From: Bdellovibrionales bacterium
Lineage (GTDB): Bacteria > Bdellovibrionota > Bdellovibrionia > Bdellovibrionales > UBA1609
Direction of reading: 5' to 3'
Assembly: GCA_965199825.1 (NCBI GenBank)
Contig: OZ241329.1
Coordinates: 64,001-128,000 of the forward strand
DNA length: 64,000 nucleotides
The notes below the pieces were generated by a model. That model saw only the letters and a list, made by a program, of their open reading frames with translations, did not search any database and was not told where the DNA came from. The position numbers and the translations under genes were made by a program. Within the stretch, counting starts at the first letter, position 1, and the number at the start of each line of letters is the position of its first letter. This document shows, one piece after another, positions 7,751 to 63,427 of this stretch.

Positions 7751-8239
7751 GTGCAAAAAATCCTTTTTCTTTTTATTTTTGCTTTGGCGGGTTGCGCCCT
7801 GTTTCGCGAAAACGCTGGACCTCCACCCTCCTTTGGACCTCGAGAGCAAGTTTACAATGGAGCTTATGATTCGATTTGGCGAGCCACACAAATTGTGATG
7901 CAGTCTTACCCGTTAAGGGTCAACAACATGGATGGCGGAATGATCGAGACCGAATCCATCCGTGGTTTTAAAGGTTTCACCCCACCTTATGAACCCAACA
8001 CGACATCAGCAGGACTGAGCTATGCTTTGACCGTGCGTTTGGTAAAGGGGTTTGTAAACGACAAAGATACGGTCAAGGTGAGTATTCTAAAATCAATTGA
8101 GCTCACTCCCGATTTTTTTTCCGAACCTAAGAGATTTCCGTCAGACGGGATGGAAGAAAAAATGCTTCTTTACCGAATCCATCGCGAGATGCAAATCGAA
8201 AAAGCCATGGAAAAAGCCCAAAAGAAAAGTTTAAAGTGA
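7751..8239 (+). CDS. Hypothetical lipoprotein (helix-grip/BamC-like fold possible)
   Basis: Lipobox LAGC; YDSIWRATQIVM...GMIETE pattern. Confidence 0.7.
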   Translation: MQKILFLFIFALAGCALFRENAGPPPSFGPREQVYNGAYDSIWRATQIVMQSYPLRVNNMDGGMIETESIRGFKGFTPPYEPNTTSAGLSYALTVRLVKGFVNDKDTVKVSILKSIELTPDFFSEPKRFPSDGMEEKMLLYRIHREMQIEKAMEKAQKKSLK

Positions 8240-8884
8240 GCGTGTTTGGAGCCACTCTTCGCGGCTCAAATTTTTGCCCGTCACCTTTTGTAGTCCATGA
8301 AGAGCCATGGGGTGAAGCGTGCTGTCTTTATCTTTTAACAAATCCTGAAATTGATTGCGGCTGCCACGATTTGAAAACTGAAGTAGAGTCTGTGCGATAT
8401 GCTTCCTAATCCAAAGACTTTGACCGTTACGAAAGTTTTCTTCGGCAAACAATTTTTTCCATAACACGCCACTGCTTTCTGCCGCATTGAGATCGCTCAA
8501 AACCTGCACCGCCGAAGTCCTGACCACAAGTGCTGGATCGGAAAGTAAACTGGAAGCGGCTTCAATCGCGCGCGGCCGACTACAATTTTTGAGAGCAATC
8601 AGTGCGGCATTACGTAAAAACCATTCTTTTGAACTTAAATTTGCTTGTAGAATTGGGATTGATCGCTCGGGATCAATCCTGCTCAAAGCGGTTAAAGATC
8701 TCCACCGCACCTGTAGCGGCTGAGAAGAATCCTCGCTCACCGTCTTGAGGGTGGCAAAAGGTTGCCGAATTGTTTTTAAAACTTCGATTCTTTTTTCTAG
8801 GGGCAGCCGCAGAGCCAAGACAGCATCCTCAAAGGGCGTCGCAAAAACATTAAAAACTACAAGTAAACAAAATAAATTTATCAT
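8231..8884 (-). CDS. Secreted HEAT-repeat protein
   Basis: Signal peptide; repeats VRWRSLTAL, LRNAALIAL, VRTSAVQVL and IRKHIAQTL. Confidence 0.8.
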   Translation of the reverse strand: MINLFCLLVVFNVFATPFEDAVLALRLPLEKRIEVLKTIRQPFATLKTVSEDSSQPLQVRWRSLTALSRIDPERSIPILQANLSSKEWFLRNAALIALKNCSRPRAIEAASSLLSDPALVVRTSAVQVLSDLNAAESSGVLWKKLFAEENFRNGQSLWIRKHIAQTLLQFSNRGSRNQFQDLLKDKDSTLHPMALHGLQKVTGKNLSREEWLQTRSL

Positions 8885-51357: not shown

Positions 51358-52437
51358 ATGACATATCTATTAGTTATATTTTATTTAGTTCAGTTTGCTC
51401 AGGCGATGCCTTTGAGCTCTTTTCCTTTTTTAAAAGGATATGTGGCCGAACGCTCCGAAGAATCACCCTTTGCCCATTTTGGCTTTTTTGAGCCTCAGAC
51501 GGCTTTGCGCTATTCGGCTCAAGACCTCCAGGGTCTCGATATTCTTAATGACTGGGTGGTGAATAATAAAAGTTTAACCAAATCGAGTCGTATGGTCTTT
51601 GGTCATTTTATCAATTCAAGTGTTGAAGGTAGAACTCCCCTTCCCTCTCGTGAATCTGCAATACGAGAATCGATTTTAAAGATGATGGTTGATGCACCCT
51701 GGGTCCATCACAATTATCTCGATGTGTTCTCTGGCCGACTGAAAATAGCTTGGCATCTCACAGCCGCCGAAACTGGTATTCCGCCCCAAAAACTTTTTGA
51801 AGTGCTCGATCTCTTTTTAAATCGTGAGCCTGAAGATGTATTAGTGGGTTTGCTGAACCGAAAATTAGACCAAAGAATGCTTGATGGGGTCAAAGATCGG
51901 GTCTTCCAAAAATTTTACTCTCATGTGCTGGTATTTTCACCTTTGATGGCCAAAAAAATCCACTACCAATTGATTGGGAGATATCGCCAGCTTCAACAGT
52001 TTAATTTGGAGCGAAAGCAAAACTACAATAGCTCGGTGGCATATCAACCCGCACTAAAAAAAGTTTTTGGCTATGAACATCTGGACGAGGCATTGAGCTT
52101 TGGATTTCGAAGAGAAGAAGATTTTAACATGATCGTCGAGCGCTATTTCAATACGATTAAAAAGCTAGAAGAATTTCAATCGCGACTGGCTTGGGTCTCG
52201 GCATCGAGCTTTGACTTAACCCTTAAAACCTACATCTTAGATGTCTTAACACAACTGCGGAGCGAACTGCTTACCCTTCCCGCACGCTTAAGTTTTATAG
52301 AGTCGCGGAGCAATCAGAATCCGCAGAATGTCAGTTGGTTTTTGATTCAGCCCAACAAACAAAAAACCGGTTTTGATTCTCTAGCCGAATGGGCACGGTA
52401 CTTGAACGTTCGTCAATGCAACAAACTGCTCGAGTAA
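51358..52437 (+). CDS. Hypothetical secreted helical protein with C-terminal CxxLL
   Basis: Signal MTYLLVIFYLVQFAQA|; the only Cys is in the terminal QCNKLLE. Confidence 0.75.
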   Translation: MTYLLVIFYLVQFAQAMPLSSFPFLKGYVAERSEESPFAHFGFFEPQTALRYSAQDLQGLDILNDWVVNNKSLTKSSRMVFGHFINSSVEGRTPLPSRESAIRESILKMMVDAPWVHHNYLDVFSGRLKIAWHLTAAETGIPPQKLFEVLDLFLNREPEDVLVGLLNRKLDQRMLDGVKDRVFQKFYSHVLVFSPLMAKKIHYQLIGRYRQLQQFNLERKQNYNSSVAYQPALKKVFGYEHLDEALSFGFRREEDFNMIVERYFNTIKKLEEFQSRLAWVSASSFDLTLKTYILDVLTQLRSELLTLPARLSFIESRSNQNPQNVSWFLIQPNKQKTGFDSLAEWARYLNVRQCNKLLE

Positions 52438-52440
52438 AAT

Positions 52441-54333
52441 CTAATTGAGATCCTCGATATTGCTAAGGGGTGCAAGACATCGCCCTTCGTAACAAACCTG
52501 AATTTTTAATGGGGATGGAGTCTCAGTCGAAATCACAAGCTGATAGGGATTAAATTCTTTAGCAAGCGTGAGCCTCGCCTTTTCAATTTCGGTCTTGGGC
52601 CCTTCAATCTCAATCACCGCCACATCATGGATATAAAAATCGTAAGCGAGCAGCAAATAAGACATCGAAAGAGATCGATCGTTCAGCATCAGTTTAAAAA
52701 TATCTTCGGCTCTTCTCTTATATTTTGAATCTTGTGTGAGATGATAAAGTCTCAACAAATTCATCGCCGATAAAGAATTCGAACTCGGCCTGACACCATC
52801 TTGATCATCTTTGAGGCGCACCACCAGGGTTTGGTCTTGACCATCATCGCGAAAGTATCCCAGTCCTTGATCATCCCAAAAGAGTTGGTCTTGGATCTGT
52901 TGTAGATTTTGAGCCTGACTCAAAAATTCTTTTTCGCCACTCGAAAGATATATATCGAGAAGTGCCGCAACCATCGCAGCGTAGTCATCCGAGAATCCAG
53001 AGATTTCGGCAGCACCCTCACGAAAACGGCGATACAAGCGATCGTTTTTAAATAACTCAGACATCACAAAATGGGCGGATCGTTTGGCAATATCCAAAAA
53101 TCGCAGATCTTGGAGTGTGCGAGATGCTAGAGCGAAGGATGAAATCATCCAGCCATTCCAGGCGGTCAAGATTTTATCATCTGTTAATGGCAGCGGCTTT
53201 TGTAAGCGCAATTTTTTGAGTTTGATTTTGATTTCTTTGAGATCTTGCCAATCGCCGGCCAAATAAAGAACATTGCGACCCTCAAAGTTTCCGTCAATTT
53301 TAATCCCATAAACATCTTTTATTTGTTGAATTTGATCGGGATTGAATGCGGCTTCAAGTTCGGTCCAAGTGTAAGTTGCAAAATAACCCTCCTCCATTTT
53401 TTGAGTCTGAGGGTCGAGACTGTCGGCATCTTGGGCCGAATAAAATCCACCTTGGGGATGGGTCATTTCGTCTGACACATAATTTAAAATTTCAGTCGCA
53501 ATCCGTATGAATTCGGGATCTTTAAATTTTTGAAATCCCTCTAGATAAATTCTGCTGAGCCAAGCTTGGTCATAAAGCATTTTCTCAAAATGAGGCACCG
53601 TCCAAGTTCGATCGGTCGAGTAGCGATGAAATCCACCATGGAGCTGATCATACATCCCCCCACGCAGCATCGCGGTCAGTGTCGATCGCACCATCTCGGG
53701 CTTATTCAGCCTTAATAACAGCATCAGGTTCATCGACTGCGGAAATTTAGGGGCTCTTCCAAATCCAGCTTCTTGTTTGTCGTAATTTTGTTCATGCCAG
53801 TTTTTGAAACTCTCGAGATAGGCCGATCCATCAAGCGGCTCTTTGTCGTTTGGAGTTGTAAGTTTAAGGTGCTGATACAAAGTTTCGGCGTCGCCTTTAA
53901 GTTCGGTCGCATTCGACTTCCATAAATCGGCAATCCGCTGATTGAGGCCAATAAAATTTTGTTTAGGAAAGTATGTCCCGCCAAAAAAAGGTTTGGCCTC
54001 AGGGGTTAACCACATCGAAAGAGGCCAGCCCCCTTGCACACCCAGCGAATGGAGTGCGGTCATGTAGATGTCGTCCACATCGGGCCGCTCTTCGCGGTCG
54101 ACTTTGATACAAACAAAATTCTGATTTAAAACATTGGCAACATCTTGGCTTTCAAAAGATTCGTGAGCCATCACATGACACCAATGGCAAGTGGCATAGC
54201 CGATCGATAAAAATATCGGCTTGTTATTTTGTTTGGCAGTGTCAAAGGCCTGTTGATCCCAGGGTTGCCACTCAACAGGATTTGTTTTGTGTTGCAAAAG
54301 ATAAGGGGATTTTTGTTGCGCAAGGCGATTCAT
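52441..54333 (-). CDS. Thioredoxin-domain YyaL/SPATA20-family protein
   Basis: [41 protein letters not shown] and [10 protein letters not shown] motifs. Confidence 0.94.
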
Positions 54334-54953
54334 AATTTAAGAACCGAAACCAAATTGTGCCCGTGGTTGAAATCTTCGATTACTCTTAGGCATTCCATAC
54401 CGGCGGCGTGGGCGGCTTCGATCCCCAATATGCCGTCTTCAAAAACCAAACACTCTTTAGGATTTACGTTTAAAGCTTTTGCCGCTTGCAAAAAACAATC
54501 GGGAGCAGGTTTGCCCATCAGATAATCTTCGGCCGCCACAATCACATCAAAATATTTTTTGAGTTTCAGATGCTCCATGGTCGACAGGATCGGCTGACGA
54601 CGACTGCCCGAGACAATCGCCATCGGAATTTTGCCATGATATTCACGGATAATGTCCACCACCGGAATCACCTCGGTCACACTCGCGATGCCATTGAGAT
54701 AATGGGTGGATTTATTTTTTAAAATTTCATCAGCCGATAATTTGATCTTGTGAAGCTCTGAAAGTCGCTCGATGATCGCTCGCGTGGGCATGCCTGCCCA
54801 TTCTCGATGCTGATCTACAGTAAGAGTTAGATTGTAGACCGAAAGGGCCTCATCCCAAGCCTTTTGGTGGAGCGGCATGGTGTCGGCCACGGTGCCATCA
54901 AAATCAAAAAGAAACGCCTTAAACTCAATATCTGGAAAAAAATCTTTAATCAT
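54330..54953 (-). CDS. HAD-family phosphatase (YqaB/beta-PGM-like)
   Basis: FDFDGT, GKPAPD and FEDGILG motifs. Confidence 0.92.
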
Positions 54954-55054
54954 TGCTGAGTTTTACTCAACTTTTTTTGGTTTGTCGATGTGGCTCCGGA
55001 TTAGACGGTGATTTTAAATTTAAGTTTTGATACTTGAAATGCTTCTCTTTTAGA

Positions 55055-55131
55055 GACCACGTAGCTCAGTTGGATAGAGCGGCAGTTTCCTAAACTGTAG
55101 GTCGCAAGTTCAATCCTTGCCGTGGTCGCCA
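55055..55131 (+). tRNA. tRNA-Arg (CCT)
   Basis: GACCACGTAGCTCAGTTGGATAGAGCGGCAGTTTCCTAAACTGTAGGTCGCAAGTTCAATCCTTGCCGTGGTCGCCA; acceptor stem GACCACG/CGTGGTC; encoded CCA. Confidence 0.95.
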
Positions 55132-55246
55132 ATACTGCAATTCCGTCGACACGTCTTCCTGACTCGACAAATTGGCAATCAGCATCCAAGCTGATTGGCC
55201 CCTTTGGGGCTTCCCAATTTGAGGTCGACTGCATTGCAGTATTGGC
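55128..55246. repeat. ~119-nt structured element bounded by a perfect 14-bp inverted repeat
   Basis: GCCAATACTGCAAT (55128-55141)/ATTGCAGTATTGGC (55233-55246), plus nested stems GTCGAC/GTCGAC, CAAATTGG/CCAATTTG, CAATCAGC/GCTGATTG and GCCCC/GGGGC. Confidence 0.8.
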
Positions 55247-55252
55247 TCCTTT

Positions 55253-55858
55253 TTATCGTGGATCAATGAGGACGAGGCGTCCATTTCGAATATCCACGAC
55301 GTGATTGAAATCAACAGACTCATGCTCATTGGCGAACCATTCTGAAATTTCTATTGCTAAACCATAGTCCATTCCGAACTCATTCAGATGAGTTTCGCTT
55401 GAGATGATTTCGGTTTGAACACCAGGTACGAATTCTAAATAGAGCAGTCGCTGGTCAACACCATAGGCTTGAAGGTCAACGTATTTGCCAGCTTCGATAT
55501 AAATATCAGACTTTCGATAAAATTCTTTAATCACTCGAGCTCCGTGTTTTGTTTCGACCACATAAACAATTCCCTCGGATCCAGCACCTAAGATGGCAAT
55601 CACTCGGAATGTTTCATCCTTAAATTTGATAACCGATCTGACCGGAAGCCCAGAGTTAATAAAATCGGGTGATTGCAATGCTCGCTCTTTTGATTCGATA
55701 AGAAAATTGCGAAATACGATTCGTAATGGAACTCGAAATCGACGAGGATACGAATCTAAGAGTTGAAGGCATGATCGCTTTGTCACTGCCCTATCTATCC
55801 AGTCTGCACTTTTTGCGGCGAGATTCATATTGATTACAAGTATGAGCACTATAAACAA
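55253..55858 (-). CDS. Secreted minimal protein-kinase-like protein
   Basis: Hydrophobic N-terminus; ILGAGSEGIVY glycine loop, VIKEF lysine, LEFVPG hinge, terminal N...LVLID; AAGGAG RBS before TTG. Confidence 0.65.
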   Translation of the reverse strand: MFIVLILVINMNLAAKSADWIDRAVTKRSCLQLLDSYPRRFRVPLRIVFRNFLIESKERALQSPDFINSGLPVRSVIKFKDETFRVIAILGAGSEGIVYVVETKHGARVIKEFYRKSDIYIEAGKYVDLQAYGVDQRLLYLEFVPGVQTEIISSETHLNEFGMDYGLAIEISEWFANEHESVDFNHVVDIRNGRLVLIDPR

Positions 55859-56207
55859 ATTTTAATTTCTCCTTTCAAATCAGTTTTAGATTATCTGCGA
55901 ATTTCAACCTAATATTCGATCCTATCTTTTGCAATCCAAACACTTTTGAGCAGCAGGGTTTGGAAAATATAAAAAGAATTACAAATTTAGTTTATGCATC
56001 GCCTGATTTTTTGAGCTCACACATGCTGCAAAGATGAACTTTTAATAAAAATAAGTTTTGTCCCCGGGTTCACACACTCACAAGTGACAGAACACATAGG
56101 CTCTTCAAAAAGGATCGTTTTTTGAATACGTTTCGCTCGGCATGGGCTAGCAGTGGTCTGAGTCCTGCAGTAAAAAGAGATCACATTAATAACCTTGTGG
56201 AGTGTGC

Positions 56208-56621
56208 ATGCGATTTTCGATTTTGAATCTGCTTTTTATCTTCGTTTCCCTAACGCCTTTTGCCACTGCCAGCACTCAGACCTACAACTGGATCTATGTC
56301 CCATTTCAAGAGTCCCATTGCGCTCGCCTCAATGCCGACGGAACAGAGGCCGAAAAAGTCGATAATAGCAAATGCTCTCAAGAGGGATTGAGTCTAAGTT
56401 GGCATTACATGGTGACCGGCTTTGAATGTTCTCTTATCTCACCCATCAATTCCTACTTTTTTATTCTTGTGGATAATTCTCGCTGCGGAATTCCGGCGAA
56501 TGCTTACTACAAGCGGCAACGAAAGGGGTTAGGACCGAAGGATTTTGAATGTGTGATGAAGACGCGCGACAGTGAGTTCTTTTACGTTCGGGTGGCCGAC
56601 ACATTTTGCTCTCTAGACTAA
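56208..56621 (+). CDS. Secreted Cys-rich protein with three tandem repeats
   Basis: Signal peptide; three C...V(D/A)xxxC units; GGAG RBS before ATG 56208. Confidence 0.75.
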   Translation: MRFSILNLLFIFVSLTPFATASTQTYNWIYVPFQESHCARLNADGTEAEKVDNSKCSQEGLSLSWHYMVTGFECSLISPINSYFFILVDNSRCGIPANAYYKRQRKGLGPKDFECVMKTRDSEFFYVRVADTFCSLD

Positions 56622-56715
56622 ATTGAGCAATGCCATCGGGTGCTACAAATCAGTTGCAGGCCAAAACAAAAAGATGATTAAATTTTAAAATAATTTCTAA
56701 TCATCGGGGATAAAA

Positions 56716-57066
56716 ATGAAACGTCTTTTGTTTTTGGGTTTGTGTTTGCAACTGGTGGGATGTGCCTCAGCAAAATTGATCGAGAGCCGTTATGAGCCCG
56801 TCAAAGGCGGAGTGGTCAAGTTCAAGCCCGAGATGATGGGGAAAGAAACCAGTGCGGATAAAGCCAAAAACATCATGTCTGACTTTTGTGCGCCCGCTAA
56901 ATATGTGGTGGTACAACAAAATCAGACCGAAGAAATCACAGGATACAGCTCAAACACCAATTCAAGCCAAAATGGCAGTTTTGCAAACCAACACACAACC
57001 ATAAATCCCTTAAGCCAAGAATACACTTTTATTCATTTTCGTTGTGGAGCGGGCAAAACCAAATAG
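56716..57066 (+). CDS. Small hypothetical lipoprotein
   Basis: Lipobox LVGC; two additional Cys (MSDFC, FRC). Confidence 0.8.
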   Translation: MKRLLFLGLCLQLVGCASAKLIESRYEPVKGGVVKFKPEMMGKETSADKAKNIMSDFCAPAKYVVVQQNQTEEITGYSSNTNSSQNGSFANQHTTINPLSQEYTFIHFRCGAGKTK

Positions 57067-57187
57067 CCGGTCATTGTACCTTCGATCACACTCGACATGT
57101 TTGCCGATCTGGTGTCGGGTGTGTAAATGATTTCAGGATCTCTTTTGAGCGCCTCGTGCCTTAAATCTTATGGTATGACCGCACACC

Positions 57188-58276
57188 ATGATTTTTATTG
57201 CAGCCCTCTTTTATTTTTTCACCGCCCACGCCGCTCCACAGGTTTGTAATGAACAGCTGCAGAGTTTCCCGCCGGGTTATGGGATCACCACCGAAGACCT
57301 AAAGCTGATTGCCAAAAACTTACCCCTCAAGGTTGAGCGACTGATTGAGATCCAGAATTTTTTAAACCAAGCTGCGGACTTGGAGTACAAGAATTTTTTT
57401 ATTTTAATCATGAGTATTGGCGACAAAAGAAGCTCAAAACATTTTAACGAACTTTTTTCGAATTATTCAGATTACTACAAGCTTGATGATCAAACTAAAA
57501 AGGTTTATCTTAAAAAGATCTATATTGCTAATCGTATTTTCATAACTTTGGCGAACATCAGTAATAAGAGATCTGATTCCCAACGCCCATTGCTGCAGGC
57601 AGCGCTTGCGGCTGATCTGGGTGGGGCTCCAGAGAATTATTTAGGCCCCGGGATGTCACCTCGAGCCCTTACGATTGATCAGGTTCACAAACTTTCATTG
57701 GATATGATCAAAAATCCACGCGATACAATATTCAGATTATTTTCGGTGGGACGCAAAGTTGATTTGGAACTAAAAAACACATTCAAATGGATCTCAAAAT
57801 TAATCGAGGATTTTGAGCAATCCGCTGAGGAACTTGACGCCAGAAACTTGACCTCGGAATGTTTAGCCAAAGCGATGCTTGAGACAAACCTCTTCAAAGT
57901 GGATGAGTATTCCTTTTTGATTAAAAGCCTTCAGATCAGATTTACTACTGAGCTCACAGAGTATAAAAAAGCGGCCCAAATGATCGAAAAGTTGAATCAG
58001 CCAGTGGAACCTGTCGCCATACACAAAACGATTGTGGAAGTTCAGCTTGCACCCCCATCGCCTTTGAACAAAAAAGGTGAACGAAAAAAAAGAATGGCCG
58101 AACGCAAATTAGCAGAAGAGACGGAACAATTAGAGCAGCAAAAAGAATTTGAGGCGCTCAAGAAAAAACAGCGCAAAGAACTCAAACATAAGTCACCCGA
58201 GTTTTCGTTGTACTATGGCCCGCGACCCGACTCAATTTTCGACAAGACCAAGATTGATAGCTCGGATAATCATTAG
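57188..58276 (+). CDS. Hypothetical secreted helical protein
   Basis: Signal ...TAHA|APQVCNEQL; charged coiled-coil C-terminal region. Confidence 0.75.
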   Translation: MIFIAALFYFFTAHAAPQVCNEQLQSFPPGYGITTEDLKLIAKNLPLKVERLIEIQNFLNQAADLEYKNFFILIMSIGDKRSSKHFNELFSNYSDYYKLDDQTKKVYLKKIYIANRIFITLANISNKRSDSQRPLLQAALAADLGGAPENYLGPGMSPRALTIDQVHKLSLDMIKNPRDTIFRLFSVGRKVDLELKNTFKWISKLIEDFEQSAEELDARNLTSECLAKAMLETNLFKVDEYSFLIKSLQIRFTTELTEYKKAAQMIEKLNQPVEPVAIHKTIVEVQLAPPSPLNKKGERKKRMAERKLAEETEQLEQQKEFEALKKKQRKELKHKSPEFSLYYGPRPDSIFDKTKIDSSDNH

Positions 58277-59431
58277 GCTCGAATTGCCCTGATGCTCACA
58301 GCTAAAATTATTTTTTTCTAAAAATTTTAAAACAGTTAAAGCGTCGCCGTGGATCGAACCCCCGGCTTCACAAATCAAAAACCGCACCCGTTTTAGTAAA
58401 TCAGGCTCAGCCATCAAAATCGCCTGCTCAGAGCCTTCCACATCAACCTTTAGAATATCAATCACCGGATTTTTAAAATGATCAAAAATATTTTTTAAGG
58501 TTGTGACTTCAACTCGCTCAGAAGTTTTGGAGTTAGATTCTGGAATATGGAGTCGATGTCCGCCCGTATTGTCCTCGCTTAAGTGGAGTTCGGCATGGCC
58601 TGGGCGATCCGACACCGCCATCTGAAACGGGCTTATATTATCAAGTTGATTGAGCGACATATTTTGTTTGATGAATTCGAAATTTTTTGAAAATGGCTCA
58701 TAAGTTTCTATCATTGATTCGTTGCTGACCAGTTTGCTTAAGAGTACCGAAAAACCTCCAATATGCCCGCCGATATCGACCGCTTGAATTCGCCCACTGA
58801 TCCGAGGCTCAAGCCACTGGATATAATCACTATAGCATTCCCCGATCACATCCCGATCAATCGTATGGGGACGAATGTAAAACTGAGTTTCGAGCGGGCC
58901 CAAAATTTTTGTTTCGGTCTGGTTTAAAAATTGATCTAAAAAGACTTGGAGATTTGTCGACTGAGCTTCTGATTGAGACTGAACCATAAAGAAATTGGGA
59001 TTTTCATAAATTGATTTCCAGTGCCTTTGCTTTTGCGAGATCAATTGAAAAAGAGGCCCTAAAAATCCGATCTGCAAAATAATGAGAGTGTAATCGGTTT
59101 CGGGCTGTGCGTCGCTGTAACCCACAAACTCAATATTTTTATTTTTAAAAAGTGGTAGGAGTCGAACAAAAACCGGCTTCAAATAACTCGGTACCATGAC
59201 CTTGCCATGGAGTCCGGGGGCCAATTTTATAAATTGATTGAACATCCCAACGCTTGCCGCATCTCCGGACTGCTTTTTAAAAATAAACCGACAGGCCCAA
59301 GGCCAACAGAATGGCACAAGTTGTCCTACAACCAACAACAATTGGGTAAATAAATAATTGAGCACTCGAATGCTCGTTTTGAATACGCCAACTTCGCGAC
59401 CATAGACTAATAACGAATCAATGCGATTCAT
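58232..59431 (-). CDS. FkbM-family methyltransferase with N-terminal extension
   Basis: VDIGGHIGGFS, YEP, MAVSD and LKVDVEGSE motifs. Confidence 0.88.
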   Translation of the reverse strand: MNRIDSLLVYGREVGVFKTSIRVLNYLFTQLLLVVGQLVPFCWPWACRFIFKKQSGDAASVGMFNQFIKLAPGLHGKVMVPSYLKPVFVRLLPLFKNKNIEFVGYSDAQPETDYTLIILQIGFLGPLFQLISQKQRHWKSIYENPNFFMVQSQSEAQSTNLQVFLDQFLNQTETKILGPLETQFYIRPHTIDRDVIGECYSDYIQWLEPRISGRIQAVDIGGHIGGFSVLLSKLVSNESMIETYEPFSKNFEFIKQNMSLNQLDNISPFQMAVSDRPGHAELHLSEDNTGGHRLHIPESNSKTSERVEVTTLKNIFDHFKNPVIDILKVDVEGSEQAILMAEPDLLKRVRFLICEAGGSIHGDALTVLKFLEKNNFSCEHQGNSSLMIIRAINLGLVEN

Positions 59432-60398
59432 CGGCCACCCGAATCTGATTCAACCGCAATGAGTTTAAACCAATGTGTTGATCTGTATTGGTCATCACAA
59501 AAACTTTTGAGTTGGCCCCCCGGGCGATTTTTTTAACAACTGCAAATGCACCATTGACCTCAATTTCAACTTTACGATGGCTTAGTAAACACGAATTTAA
59601 AAAATCAATAACCGCTTGTTCAAAGGACGAATCTTTAAGGGGCTTCGGCTCAAGAGTTAAAATCGAATCTGTAATCACCGAATAAAGTGAGATATCCACT
59701 TTTTCACCATTGTCTTTTAAAATACGCACAAAAAGTTGGTGCGGGTCTTCGATATCGTCAAACGCTTCGTCCAAATCTTCGGGATCTCGAGGATCAAAAA
59801 CTCCAAGATTTTCTCCTTGGATTTGTATGAGCTTATGGGGCTCAGTTTTGTAAGTCAGAGTGACATGATGAGGCAGCGAAAGGGGGTCGGCCAATTTTTC
59901 ATAGACTTCCGACAAAAGCGTAAAGGAGATCATTTTTTGGTGTAAATAGAAACTATTTGTGTCGACGTTTTCGAAATATTGAGCGAAGCCGTCTTGAGTA
60001 ACGAATGCTGGTTTGTGCATTTTATCAAAAAACACATATTTGATCACCCCCACTCGCGCCTCATACCCATGATCGATTAAAGTTCTAAAGCTGATAGGCC
60101 AATTGTTTTTTTGTGACAATTCAAAGGCTGCAAAAAGGGGTTGCGATTTTTTATCTCCATGGGGAGCGGCTGCGGGCTTGATCGATTCAATCACAATTTG
60201 ATTAAGCTCAATCAAATGATCTTTTCCGCTATCGCCCACAACCGCAACATGATTTTCGCCGAACTCAATAAGAGTTCTCAAATTGGGTTTGAGTTCATTT
60301 ATATATTGAAAAATAAAGTGATCGCCGCGCTGAAGTTGAATCGCGCAGGCATCGTGTGCCAGCGCTGGCTGAAGCAATAATGCAAATACAAAAAACAT
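59418..60398 (-). CDS. Hypothetical secreted protein with repeated small beta-rich modules
   Basis: Signal ...PALA|HDACAIQL; approximately four degenerate repeats. Confidence 0.7.
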   Translation of the reverse strand: MFFVFALLLQPALAHDACAIQLQRGDHFIFQYINELKPNLRTLIEFGENHVAVVGDSGKDHLIELNQIVIESIKPAAAPHGDKKSQPLFAAFELSQKNNWPISFRTLIDHGYEARVGVIKYVFFDKMHKPAFVTQDGFAQYFENVDTNSFYLHQKMISFTLLSEVYEKLADPLSLPHHVTLTYKTEPHKLIQIQGENLGVFDPRDPEDLDEAFDDIEDPHQLFVRILKDNGEKVDISLYSVITDSILTLEPKPLKDSSFEQAVIDFLNSCLLSHRKVEIEVNGAFAVVKKIARGANSKVFVMTNTDQHIGLNSLRLNQIRVADESH

Positions 60399-60404
60399 TT
60401 GAGA

Positions 60405-61877
60405 TTAATCCTTTGTGGTCAGCTTTTCTTGCAGCGCTAATGCTGCAGAATAAATACGATCTTTTTTTGAGGGGTCCATCTTGGCAACCGTTCGTGCCAT
60501 CATCGAGAGGCGCGGATTCTTCATAAAATAGTCGCTGTGTTTTTCGATAAATCTCCAGTACAGCCCATCCACTCCATCGCACCAATCGCCTTTTTTATAG
60601 CCCCCCATTTTGCGATAATAGTTTGATCCACAAATATAGGGTTTGGTCGCAAAAATTCCGCCATCACTAAAAATCGCCATGCCGTAAACGTTGGGGCCCA
60701 TCACCCAGTCCGAAGAATCAATAAACATTTCCATAAACCATCTGTGAGCTTCGTGGGGATGCACCTCAAGAAGAAGCATCAAAGATCCCACCACCATCAA
60801 GCGCTCAATATGATGGGCATAGCCATAGGTCGAAACTTTTTTTAATACGGTATCGAGTGGAGGAATTCCGGTTTCTGCCTTGTACCATTGGTCATTGAGT
60901 TTTCTTGTGTGCTTAAAGAAATTCTTTGAGTCTTCTTCTTCACTATAATTTTGATAGATGCCGCGGATAAATTCGCGCCAGCCTATGATTTGCCTCACGA
61001 ATCCTTCCAAGGAATTCAGCGGAATTTTATTTTTGCGACCAAAACTGATCACCTCGCTGATCACTTCGCGCGGAGTTAAAAGTCCGGTGTTGAGATAGGG
61101 GGTGAGCACAGAATGATTCAAAAATGGAAAATGATCTGAGAGGGCATCTTCGTAGGGACCAAATTCTTTGAATCTCTCTTTTAAAAATTTTTTGAGATGG
61201 TTAAAGGCCTCGGGCTTTGTTGTGGCTAACCACACTTCTGAAGATCCCGGATGACTTTTAAAGGTCTTTTCAACGAGCGTTCGCACCTCATCATCAATTT
61301 TGTCGGCTTGGTATTTTTCGAGAGCAGGAGCTACGTAATTTTTGGGTAAACTTTTTCTGTTGTCTTCATCAAAACTCCACTGCCCACCAGTGGGCTGAAG
61401 CTCTTTATCCACCAATATATTTAAGCGCTTTCGTTGAGCTTCATAAAAATTGCGCATAAACGGTTTTTTGGTTTTTCGTAAATAAGATTTAAATTGAGCT
61501 CTTGTGGTTAAAAACATAGGGCTTGGAAGCTCTTCGTATTCAACTTCATTTTTATTTAAAGCATTTGCGATGCGGGTTTCAAAAAATTTATCTTCGATTT
61601 CGAAACTTGAAATCTTTTTGATTTTTTTTTGCTTTAAAAAATCAATCAAAGACTCCTCGTACGAGACCTTACTAAAGGTCTCGTAGTGCACAGAGATCCC
61701 TCGCGAACGAAGGTCTGCGGCATATTTTCGCATCGCACTTAAAAAGAAACTGATTTTAAGCTTGTGATATTTAAAATGACTGCACAGATCAATATCTTCA
61801 CGCATAAAGACATGAGCATCTTGAGGAATCAATTTGGGATCAAACAGCTGATTACCAAGAATTAAAAAACCAAGCAC
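60405..61877 (-). CDS. Cryptochrome/photolyase family, bacterial (6-4) photolyase (PhrB-related)
   Basis: ILGNQLF, HKLK, MRxFY, GGQWSFDEDNR, FGPYEDA, EGFVRQIIGWREF, YAHHIERLM and WVMGPNVYGM motifs. Confidence 0.93.
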   Translation of the reverse strand: MLGFLILGNQLFDPKLIPQDAHVFMREDIDLCSHFKYHKLKISFFLSAMRKYAADLRSRGISVHYETFSKVSYEESLIDFLKQKKIKKISSFEIEDKFFETRIANALNKNEVEYEELPSPMFLTTRAQFKSYLRKTKKPFMRNFYEAQRKRLNILVDKELQPTGGQWSFDEDNRKSLPKNYVAPALEKYQADKIDDEVRTLVEKTFKSHPGSSEVWLATTKPEAFNHLKKFLKERFKEFGPYEDALSDHFPFLNHSVLTPYLNTGLLTPREVISEVISFGRKNKIPLNSLEGFVRQIIGWREFIRGIYQNYSEEEDSKNFFKHTRKLNDQWYKAETGIPPLDTVLKKVSTYGYAHHIERLMVVGSLMLLLEVHPHEAHRWFMEMFIDSSDWVMGPNVYGMAIFSDGGIFATKPYICGSNYYRKMGGYKKGDWCDGVDGLYWRFIEKHSDYFMKNPRLSMMARTVAKMDPSKKDRIYSAALALQEKLTTKD

Positions 61878-61889
61878 AAATCGATTCCT

Positions 61890-62324
61890 TTATGCCTGGA
61901 CGTCGAATTGAAATTGAATCTGGGTTTTTACCGAATTCAGAATCAGACAATTTTTTGTGGTCCGTTCCAACAAGCGCTGAATGCTTTCGACTTTTGATGC
62001 TCCCTCAACAGTTACGGTAAGCAAAAATTTTGACATCCATGGATGCCCGTCTTCACCGCGATCCACTTGGAGAAGACCCTTGGTTTTAAGTTTCGAGTAG
62101 GTCAGTCGTGATTTTTCGGCAAAAACTTTGAATGACGCCACAAAACAATTTTGCAATGCCATGGCGTAAAGATCTTCAGGGCTCAATCCACCACCAGGTC
62201 CATCAAATTCCTTTGGGATGCCCATCTTAATCGGTTCTGCGGGGGGCGCGGTGGAGGTCCATAAGGGCTGGATGCCTGCGGTCGTTTCGGCATTAACGTT
62301 AAATGTAAGGGGATATTGAACCAT
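61890..62324 (-). CDS. OsmC-family protein
   Basis: PKEFDGPGGGLSPEDL...C and second Cys in CLILNS. Confidence 0.9.
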   Translation of the reverse strand: MVQYPLTFNVNAETTAGIQPLWTSTAPPAEPIKMGIPKEFDGPGGGLSPEDLYAMALQNCFVASFKVFAEKSRLTYSKLKTKGLLQVDRGEDGHPWMSKFLLTVTVEGASKVESIQRLLERTTKNCLILNSVKTQIQFQFDVQA

Positions 62325-62428
62325 TTAAAAAAACCTCCGTTACATTGGATTTAAGGAAAACAATTTGATTGGTCAATCTTAACAGATTCCTAATTTTGTC
62401 CTTTATAAAGTATGGGTCAGACTGAAGC

Positions 62429-63427
62429 GTGCAAAACATTTTTTTCACCCTCCTTTTGGTCATTCATCCCGCCTTTGCTAAAACTTGTAGCGACGCCCTG
62501 AGTGGCATCGAACACCACTTTAAGGATTGGCAAGCCGAACGCCGAAGCTTCAATCTCCACCGCGTGCCGACCGCACGATTACGAGTTGCCACTCTCAATC
62601 TTAATTTGATCAATGGCATTTTCGTACGAAATCCCATTTATACTCAAAACAACCCAAATGTTCTTGAAGGCTTAAAAAATTATCTTCACTCGAATGAAGC
62701 ACCTGACATTGTGGCGGCGCAAGAAATTTGGGAGCGCAAAGATCATCACGCAATTTTAAAAATTGCACTGGAGGCGGGCTTTGCTCCCGCGGTGACCGAT
62801 GAAGATCAGATGATTCAAACCGGGCTTCAAATCTTAATCAAACAAACAATTCTTCAATCGCCCGCACAATCGGAATTTAGGGCCTTTTTGTCGACCAACA
62901 ACAAATGTGTGAGCTCCAGTTGGGAAAAGATGGGACGAAAGCAGCGTGGAGTTCTGATTACCGAATTGAATTTGAAAGAGGGTTTAACATTGAGATTCAA
63001 AAACACTCACCTTACCCCCCTCAACTGCCATGGCAAAACCCGCGAACAACAAATTGAGGCGCTCAAACAAATTGCAATGACCCAAAAAAAGCGAAATTTT
63101 GAAATCTTGGTGGGCGATATGAATATCGCGGCTGAAGGTGTTGAAAAAGACTTAAGCACTTATCAAAGTCTTTACTCCCAACTCGGTATGATCGACAGCT
63201 TTCGTGCGGTCTCAGATGAGTTTGGCTCGACCGTCAATCGAGCCTTTCCCCAAACCGTAGCATTACGACTCGGAAAATTGATCGATCGACGAATCGATTA
63301 TATTTTGATCGATAAGGCTTCGGATAGGAATATTCAAATTCATAATTCCAAGGTGATCTTTGATAATCGTCATCAAAAAGCGATCTCGGATCACTACGGA
63401 GTCGAAACAGCATTTGAAATTTTTTAG
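62429..63427 (+). CDS. Secreted endonuclease/exonuclease/phosphatase (EEP) family hydrolase
   Basis: VATLN, DIVAAQE, NTHL, VGDMN, RIDYI and SDHYGV motifs; signal ...PAFA|KTCSDAL. Confidence 0.9.
   Translation: MQNIFFTLLLVIHPAFAKTCSDALSGIEHHFKDWQAERRSFNLHRVPTARLRVATLNLNLINGIFVRNPIYTQNNPNVLEGLKNYLHSNEAPDIVAAQEIWERKDHHAILKIALEAGFAPAVTDEDQMIQTGLQILIKQTILQSPAQSEFRAFLSTNNKCVSSSWEKMGRKQRGVLITELNLKEGLTLRFKNTHLTPLNCHGKTREQQIEALKQIAMTQKKRNFEILVGDMNIAAEGVEKDLSTYQSLYSQLGMIDSFRAVSDEFGSTVNRAFPQTVALRLGKLIDRRIDYILIDKASDRNIQIHNSKVIFDNRHQKAISDHYGVETAFEIF

Follow-up and report, generated by a model that had tools for sequence, protein, structure and literature searches.

Among the closest described systems, bacterial lipoproteins carry a lipobox of the pattern [LVI][ASTVIG][GAS], and cargo of the type IX secretion system (T9SS) carries a C-terminal Ig-like domain (CTD) and is shuttled by PorV. 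We describe here a shorter signal, a terminal cysteine tag of the form C-x-x-x-L, on predicted exported proteins encoded in a 64-kb window (the whole stretch analysed, 64,000 nucleotides, C1:64001-128000) of the 2.84-Mb, 100% complete genome of a Bdellovibrionales bacterium (G000). The enrichment of this tag is real and far beyond chance. MYXO-CTERM, a further Cys-based signal, has been linked to the type II secretion system (T2SS) (Haft, 10.1101/2023.06.07.544157), and a 2025 review regards the evidence for the roles of predator secretion systems as still limited (PMC12428579).

An earlier note, made from the letters of the window, had pointed to five reading frames within 12 kb whose products combine a signal-peptide-like N-terminus with a C-x-x-x-L motif, four near the N-terminus and one at the C-terminus. 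All five frames and motifs were found at their places. Our own hydrophobicity heuristic, which re-picks starts and on which all labels of "Sec" or "exported" below depend as predictions, assigned Sec/signal peptidase I (SPI) signals to all five. The proteins and their tags are:

51358..52437, + strand: exported orphan of 359 aa with a C-terminal tag and a lone Cys (open reading frame; no Pfam, NCBIfam or Atlas match)
52417..52431, + strand: its tag CNKLL (Cys354), 6 residues from the end, with a stop-proximal Glu one residue on
55253..55858, - strand: exported protein-kinase-like protein of 201 aa with an N-terminal tag and a lone Cys, member of a tagged family (homologues, model, fold search)
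55757..55771, - strand: its tag CLQLL (Cys30), the Cys being kept in 15/15 signal-bearing homologues
57188..58276, + strand: exported orphan of 362 aa with an N-terminal tag and a charged C-terminal region (2 Cys in total)
57245..57259, + strand: its tag CNEQL (Cys20)
59418..60398, - strand: exported orphan of 326 aa with an N-terminal tag (2 Cys in total)
60333..60347, - strand: its tag CAIQL (Cys18)
62429..63427, + strand: exported EEP (endonuclease/exonuclease/phosphatase) family hydrolase of 332 aa with an N-terminal tag (Pfam E 1.8e-6; 3 Cys)
62486..62500, + strand: its tag CSDAL (Cys20)

This is the densest tag cluster on the chromosome (5 in 12.1 kb). The proteins at 51358 and 55858 each hold one Cys only, as had been stated, and the core exported proteins of the window are indeed free of an end motif, namely the M16 peptidase (no mature Cys), an L,D-transpeptidase-family protein (one) and the HEAT protein (one). 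The cargo labels of the note fared unevenly: that of the EEP hydrolase stood, the kinase-like label received weak support from Foldseek, where the top matches were all protein kinases (best E 1.1e-3), and the labels "helical" and "beta-repeat" found no Pfam, NCBIfam or Atlas match to confirm them. The structure model of the kinase-like protein had a predicted local distance difference test (pLDDT) score above 90 in the body and of about 70 at the tag, and the single-sequence model of the orphan at 60398(-) covered its first 98 mature residues at a pLDDT of 65 and was left out of the fold search. Neither model has a helix at the tag, and the amphipathic helix proposed in the note is not borne out, a hydrophobic pattern at 0, +3 and +4 being all that speaks for it. 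The ESM Atlas held no usable match for 60398(-) or 51358, and a homologue search with the EEP protein found only itself. Elsewhere in the window (7751-8884), a conserved pair of a lipoprotein and an exported HEAT-repeat protein was seen, which is present also in a second Bdellovibrionales genome (G006).

For the genome-wide count, 2553 genes of G000 were called with a codon-usage model, and the ends of the 577 soluble predicted Sec proteins were defined as the first 20 mature residues and the last 12 residues. C-x3-L was present near the N end of 62 of these proteins (mean 8.0 and maximum 17 in 300 whole-protein shuffles; 16.8 and 29 in local shuffles) and near the C end of 36 (3.7 and 10; 9.3 and 20, respectively). 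The motif was carried by 9/1231 cytoplasmic proteins at the N end and 13/1231 at the C end, and by none of 179 lipoproteins at the N end. As a residue control, Cys was enriched 7.3-fold (N) and 10.6-fold (C), while the other 19 residues stayed at or below 1.35 and 2.0, respectively. The spacing is likewise preferred at the N end, with 62 proteins for x3, 37 for x2 and 10-17 for the other spacings. The heuristic miscalls several cytoplasmic proteins as exported, by which the enrichment is diluted and not created, and when only codon usage was allowed to set the starts, the tag at the C end was still enriched (27/528 vs 30/1620, p 1.4e-4). Among 162 single-Cys exported proteins, the Cys lies near an end in 102 (34 expected), 65 of which have Leu at +4. 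A relaxed count of 174/743 against 56 expected gives an estimate of about 120 true tags in G000.

The 117 lone terminal Cys of the two genomes yielded the consensus [D/E/S]-x-C-[E/A]-x-[L/I]-L-[S/E/T], summarised as C-x-x-[L/I]-L, with F at +4 in some relatives. In N tags the Cys lies from +2 to beyond +20 and the conserved residues follow it and do not precede it; C tags, which are fewer, lie 5-16 residues from the end. The lipobox pattern was found immediately upstream of the Cys in 0/62 N tags, and a polar or charged residue stood between the SPI site and the Cys in 56/62. Only one protein is tagged at both ends (3.9 expected), weak evidence for one tag per protein. The tag Cys is the lone Cys in 32/62 N-tagged and 20/36 C-tagged proteins and would thus be available for an inter-chain disulfide of the kind used by AB toxins. 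As to promoters shared by the tagged genes, no k-mer survived multiple testing, sigma-54-like promoters preceded 5/105 tagged and 49/2448 other genes, and sigma-28-like ones 0/105 tagged genes. A PDB sequence search with the tag profile returned chance matches to plant virus coat proteins only. Separately, six tandem exported paralogues carry a C-x-x-L variant directly after the signal peptide (L008:17770-19982(-); G000 C1:460767-465603).

G006, of which 1.28 of 1.61 Mb (79%) was examined, was the sole relative in which the tag was tested statistically, and it replicates the enrichment with 16 (N) and 18 (C) of 206 proteins against 3.7 and 1.8 in shuffles. Three of its 34 exported ankyrin proteins are N-tagged and 16 C-tagged, so that both ends are used within one family; together with the 62 N and 36 C proteins of G000, this bears out the idea of a portable tag usable at either terminus. 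Conservation of the Cys was followed in two families. The kinase-like protein at 55858(-) has 18 homologues, 15 of which have a hydrophobic N-terminus, all 15 with a Cys in the stretch from there to the kinase lobe and 13 with L or F at +4 from that Cys; the remaining three either have no Cys or are missing the N-terminal part. An exported PrkA paralogue was present in 11/60 relatives, always with a signal (called by the heuristic in 7 and by eye in 4), an intact Walker A and a linker Cys at varying distance (11/11), which has L or F at +4 in eight. Nine of the 11 have no Cys beyond Walker A (one partial), while native PrkA is without signal or tag in 18/18 cases and has 2-7 internal Cys. In exported PrkA, the tag and the signal peptide were gained together. 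The PrkA profile gave three further matches, one with CAALL after the signal, one with CGDFL at a truncated start and one without a tag-like Cys.

None of the three outcomes named in the note as refuting it turned up: the motif is positionally enriched, its Cys is conserved in homologues, and no N tag has a lipobox before the Cys. Tag examples with L or F at +4, as selected matches, came from 19 further genomes, which belong to three families. A profile of signal plus tag over the 60 relatives was too insensitive for counts (0-4 matches per genome, many signal-only) and served to gather examples only. The search of named relatives gave only eight weak unrelated loci, and the homologue search with a winged-helix cargo returned only itself. 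In 160 kb of G031 only a shorter variant was found: exported ankyrin and Sel1 proteins there end in C-x-[F/Y]-stop (L117:4241-5380(-), L195:2166-3575(-)), possibly a shorter form of the tag in another family.

To describe the cargo, a broad list of 132 proteins was trimmed before counting to a strict set of 86 (soluble Sec, C-x3-L within 20 or 16 residues), which removed membrane-protein false positives (two AcrB, EamA, Band 7, TgpA, Omp85 and others) together with two proteins that may well be truly tagged, AIM24 (F at +4) and MutS V. Fifteen of the 86 have a Pfam match and 11 of these are, by our own judgement, of cytoplasmic type, compared with 8 of the 50 Pfam-matched proteins among 123 untagged neighbours (Fisher p 6e-5); several of those eight are signal miscalls and the rest of the 50 are envelope proteins and hydrolases. 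The cytoplasmic-type cargo comprises DnaJ, SpoVR-DUF444, AAA, PrkA, two OmpR-type winged helices, peptide deformylase, ABC1 kinase, two GNATs and MaoC. The view of the note that an exported kinase-like protein would need another compartment thus extends to most of the recognisable cargo. The other four are EEP and an abhydrolase, a PLD and a PAD protein (2-13 Cys), and the tags on the last three are probably due to chance. Catalytic motifs are intact where checked (HPD in DnaJ, HExxH and its Cys in peptide deformylase, Walker A in PrkA). The presence of OmpR-type winged helices, PrkA and SpoVR-YeaH suggests that the target is bacterial.

Tagged bodies are poor in Cys in both genomes (0.41 per 100 aa vs 1.05 in cytoplasmic proteins). 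In G000, the even bias of the Cys number is gone (30 odd/17 even vs 76/119 for periplasmic proteins), and the composition of the cargo is shifted towards cytoplasmic proteins (p 0.002). Tagged cargo of G006 includes MoxR/vWA pairs, ankyrins and a GmrSD-type nuclease domain. One cassette, of an exported PrkA, a giant AAA protein and an SpoVR-DUF444 fusion, is tagged N, C and N, respectively, and the tags are kept in G006:

L009:8188-19047 = G000 C1:1097685-1108547, - strand: PrkA cassette

Two further arrangements were observed, namely two tagged exported proteins in tandem, each with a DNA-binding domain of OmpR/PhoB type but without a receiver match (L005:3679-5301(-)), and, twice in the 1.6-Mb genome of G006 (L103, L146), a tagged exported MoxR AAA+ protein beside a large tagged partner, one with a vWA domain.

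In the examples seen the tag is order-wide, and its mechanism is likely that of a Cys handle for delivery in a second step. We favour, tentatively and with slightly less than even confidence, a covalent and probably disulfide handle that selects cytoplasmic-type cargo for a second export step, with release in the prey or host cell. The proteins would be exported by Sec and their predicted signals cleaved, leaving the tag on a variable-length linker that, by the alignment and with lower model confidence there, lies outside the folded domain. The lone tag Cys might then form a pair with a single receptor shared by all, or be modified by it; this would account both for the limit of one tag to a protein and for the disappearance of other Cys from the cargo. 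Passage through the outer membrane would most likely use the T2SS, with Tad or type IVa pili as alternatives. In the target cytoplasm the bond could then be reduced, in analogy to the disulfide-tethered subunits of AB toxins, and set free enzymes dependent on ATP, acyl-CoA, DNA or nascent chains.

The envelope machinery of G000 was compared with this scheme. It includes a full T2SS cluster (the gspC-N-like cluster at C1:2569911-2583548), a type IVa pilus, two Tad secretins, the translocation and assembly module, DsbA and DsbD, with counterparts in the examined part of G006. GspD-N0 matches were present in 61/61 genomes of the order (one with a weak match only), including 1.2-Mb ones. Inserted between gspD and gspE is an exported orphan (L249:49-549(+); G000 C1:2573149-2573652) whose mature chain bears a lone CEDLL 39 residues from its start; it has no homologue in 60 relatives. 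Barrels resembling PorV/PorQ gave weak matches in 47/61 Bdellovibrionales genomes, often several each, and 0/61 over the cut-off; examples are:

L104:2871-3890, - strand; G000 C1:855554-856384: PorV/PorQ-like outer-membrane barrels

Such a barrel as an obligatory partner was discarded, as none was found, at weak sensitivity, in G002, G017, G052 and G053. A co-fold of a G006 tag segment with GspC and with the PorV-like barrel of G006 scored 0.00 and yielded no verdict. A contractile injection system of the extracellular (eCIS) type was likewise rejected, the phage-type sheath PF04984 being found in 0/5 tag-bearing genomes, in a search that left aside the sheath families specific to type VI secretion. 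No binding or translocation subunit of AB-toxin type was recognised among the exported proteins shared with the examined part of G006, B-subunit families having been searched within that set and not genome-wide, and the same shared proteins held no convincing conserved free Cys.

Several observations weigh against the disulfide handle as set out above. No receptor was identified among the 119 exported protein pairs common to G000 and the 79% of G006, and the components of the T2SS are without a conserved free Cys in the periplasm. Five small genomes retain all four secretins (T2SS, type IVa pilus, Tad), so that retention fails to single out the T2SS. On the side of the cargo, 71 of the 86 strictly tagged proteins are without a recognised domain, 15 of the 34 exported ankyrins of G006 are untagged, and the tagged proteins of G006 also include three trypsin-like proteases and one poly-gamma-glutamate hydrolase, extracellular-type enzymes that need no cytoplasm. 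The composition shift and the odd-Cys bias were not replicated in G006 (p 0.36; 7 odd/15 even). Finally, nine signal-bearing ClpB-like AAA+ ATPases from eight Bdellovibrionales genomes are all without a canonical tag, which means that export of ATP-dependent cargo is possible in its absence.

These ATPases, of 790-895 aa, lack a Clp N domain, are very divergent and in most cases keep one ring intact; the N-terminus was signal-like in 7/7 two-ring paralogues whose start was read, and a tree of the exported Clp proteins was saturated and uninformative. In G000 the gene is the first of an operon that also encodes two large exported proteins with hydrophobic segments. Their locations are:

L027:141-2798, - strand = G000 C1:2033138-2035798; L149:10105-12753, - strand; L242-L248: exported ClpB-like ATPases

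The family is therefore either a counter-example to a universal tag signal or a lineage-specific motor, and it recalls HSP101 of the Plasmodium translocon of exported proteins (PTEX). As an obligatory tag receptor it was rejected, since it was not found in the tag-bearing G002, G017, G052 and G053. Larger Clp-like proteins (1160-1480 aa), for most of which the N-terminus was not captured, were also seen, each with three AAA-like matches (G034:C6, G045:C5, G008:C2, G060:C24, G021:C47, G042:C1). Taken to its widest form, the disulfide handle would belong to an undescribed Bdellovibrionales delivery pathway, in which a direction-independent Cys tag clips at least 100 Sec-exported copies of machinery from the cytoplasm (transcription-factor DNA-binding domains, peptide deformylase, PrkA-SpoVR-YeaH, MoxR/vWA ATPase modules, kinases and DnaJ) to a common carrier, by which they enter the cytoplasm of living prey and reprogramme it, with the untagged ClpB-like ATPases as a PTEX-like unfolding motor in some lineages; we consider this joint reading rather doubtful.

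One alternative, which we think unlikely, is that a periplasmic enzyme dedicated to the task attaches a lipid (S-acyl or diacylglyceryl) to the tag Cys, which then gives a non-lipobox anchor on the outer membrane, on vesicles or on a target membrane. A flexible terminus whose single Cys forms part of a small hydrophobic face (0, +3, +4) would suit a direction-blind modification of the side chain, and the sub-threshold PorV-like barrels are in line with it. Lipidation is also the proposed fate of MYXO-CTERM cysteines (10.1101/2023.06.07.544157). Against this stand the absence of a lipobox from all 62 N tags and of a transmembrane helix after the C tags, and anchoring alone supplies the cargo with neither ATP nor DNA. 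Two candidate enzymes failed as well: Rce1/CPBP (PF02517) has two genes in G000 and MBOAT is present there, but both were found in 0/4 other tag-bearing genomes (93-95% complete).

A low probability is also given to the tag as a general signal for outer-membrane secretion or vesicle loading, by which the cargo would meet ATP and nucleic acids in the prey periplasm or in leaking prey without any translocation device. The span of tagged cargo from extracellular-type hydrolases to ATPases would fit this, but the classical exoenzymes of G000 (S1/P1 nuclease, trypsins and GDSL lipases) are untagged and T2SS recognition is not known to involve an invariant Cys. The retention of the T2SS throughout the order, seen above in GspD-N0 and reported in PMC8067016, favours it.

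Still less probable is the docking of cargo on a periplasmic scaffold or holdase, or its cross-linking, for storage or the assembly of complexes within the predator. Some operons have the tag on every member, as in the PrkA cassette of both genomes, and tagged genes cluster (31 adjacent pairs vs 18.8, p 0.001), but the 129 tagged proteins fall into 113 clusters and are mostly unrelated singletons, no shared protein with repeated free Cys was seen, and the cytoplasmic-type cargo is left unexplained. Chance or a gene-calling artefact, suggested by the short motif and by a heuristic that re-picks starts, is next to negligible, as shuffles, residue controls, a second genome, two homologue families and the C tag with fixed starts concur.

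The tag provides a sequence rule that groups about 5% of the proteome, mostly hypothetical proteins, as one class. Its cargo suggests that these predators, beyond digesting the prey, may also control its physiology at the level of transcription, translation and stress ATPases. No published description was found in the full-text literature, whose coverage leaves out most subscription papers and bioRxiv supplements, and PMC11656739 mentions neither cysteine nor signal peptide.

Among the families tested, a five-residue sorting signal that stands at either end without a membrane helix or domain has no counterpart. The lipoprotein signal (lipobox; Lgt/LspA/Lnt) shares with the tag a functional Cys near the mature N-terminus of unrelated Sec-exported proteins and differs in its lipobox, in the fixed +1 position of its Cys and in having nothing like the 36 C-terminal copies. 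MYXO-CTERM, JDVT-, Synerg- and CGP-CTERM with their Rce1-type sortases are alike in having an invariant Cys within a short motif that sorts dozens of otherwise unrelated proteins with signal peptides. The tag, unlike these, has no transmembrane helix or Arg cluster and occurs at either end, NCBIfam sorting models match 0/85 tagged proteins, and the Rce1 family was not found in four tag-bearing genomes. CFI-box-CTERM (NCBIfam NF041770) is a Cys-containing terminal signal in the same genomes, but it is a 69-residue C-terminal domain and matches 0/85 tagged proteins. The T9SS CTD with its PorV shuttle is similar as a portable address for a post-Sec export step, and distant PorV-like barrels are present; a five-residue tag at either end is, however, no Ig-like domain, the PorV scores stay below the cut-off, and T9SS CTD families matched 0/127 tagged proteins in Pfam and 0/85 in NCBIfam. 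AB toxins differ in that about 120 unrelated cargoes share the tag here, with no known B subunit or carrier and with cargo that points mainly to the bacterial cytoplasm. As a working analogy, CdtB-PltA of typhoid toxin (PMC6469816) would nevertheless resemble the tagged proteins as a Sec-exported enzyme tied to its carrier by one Cys and released by reduction. T2SS substrates, finally, share with the tagged proteins a Sec signal, here predicted, and the T2SS of G000 is complete.

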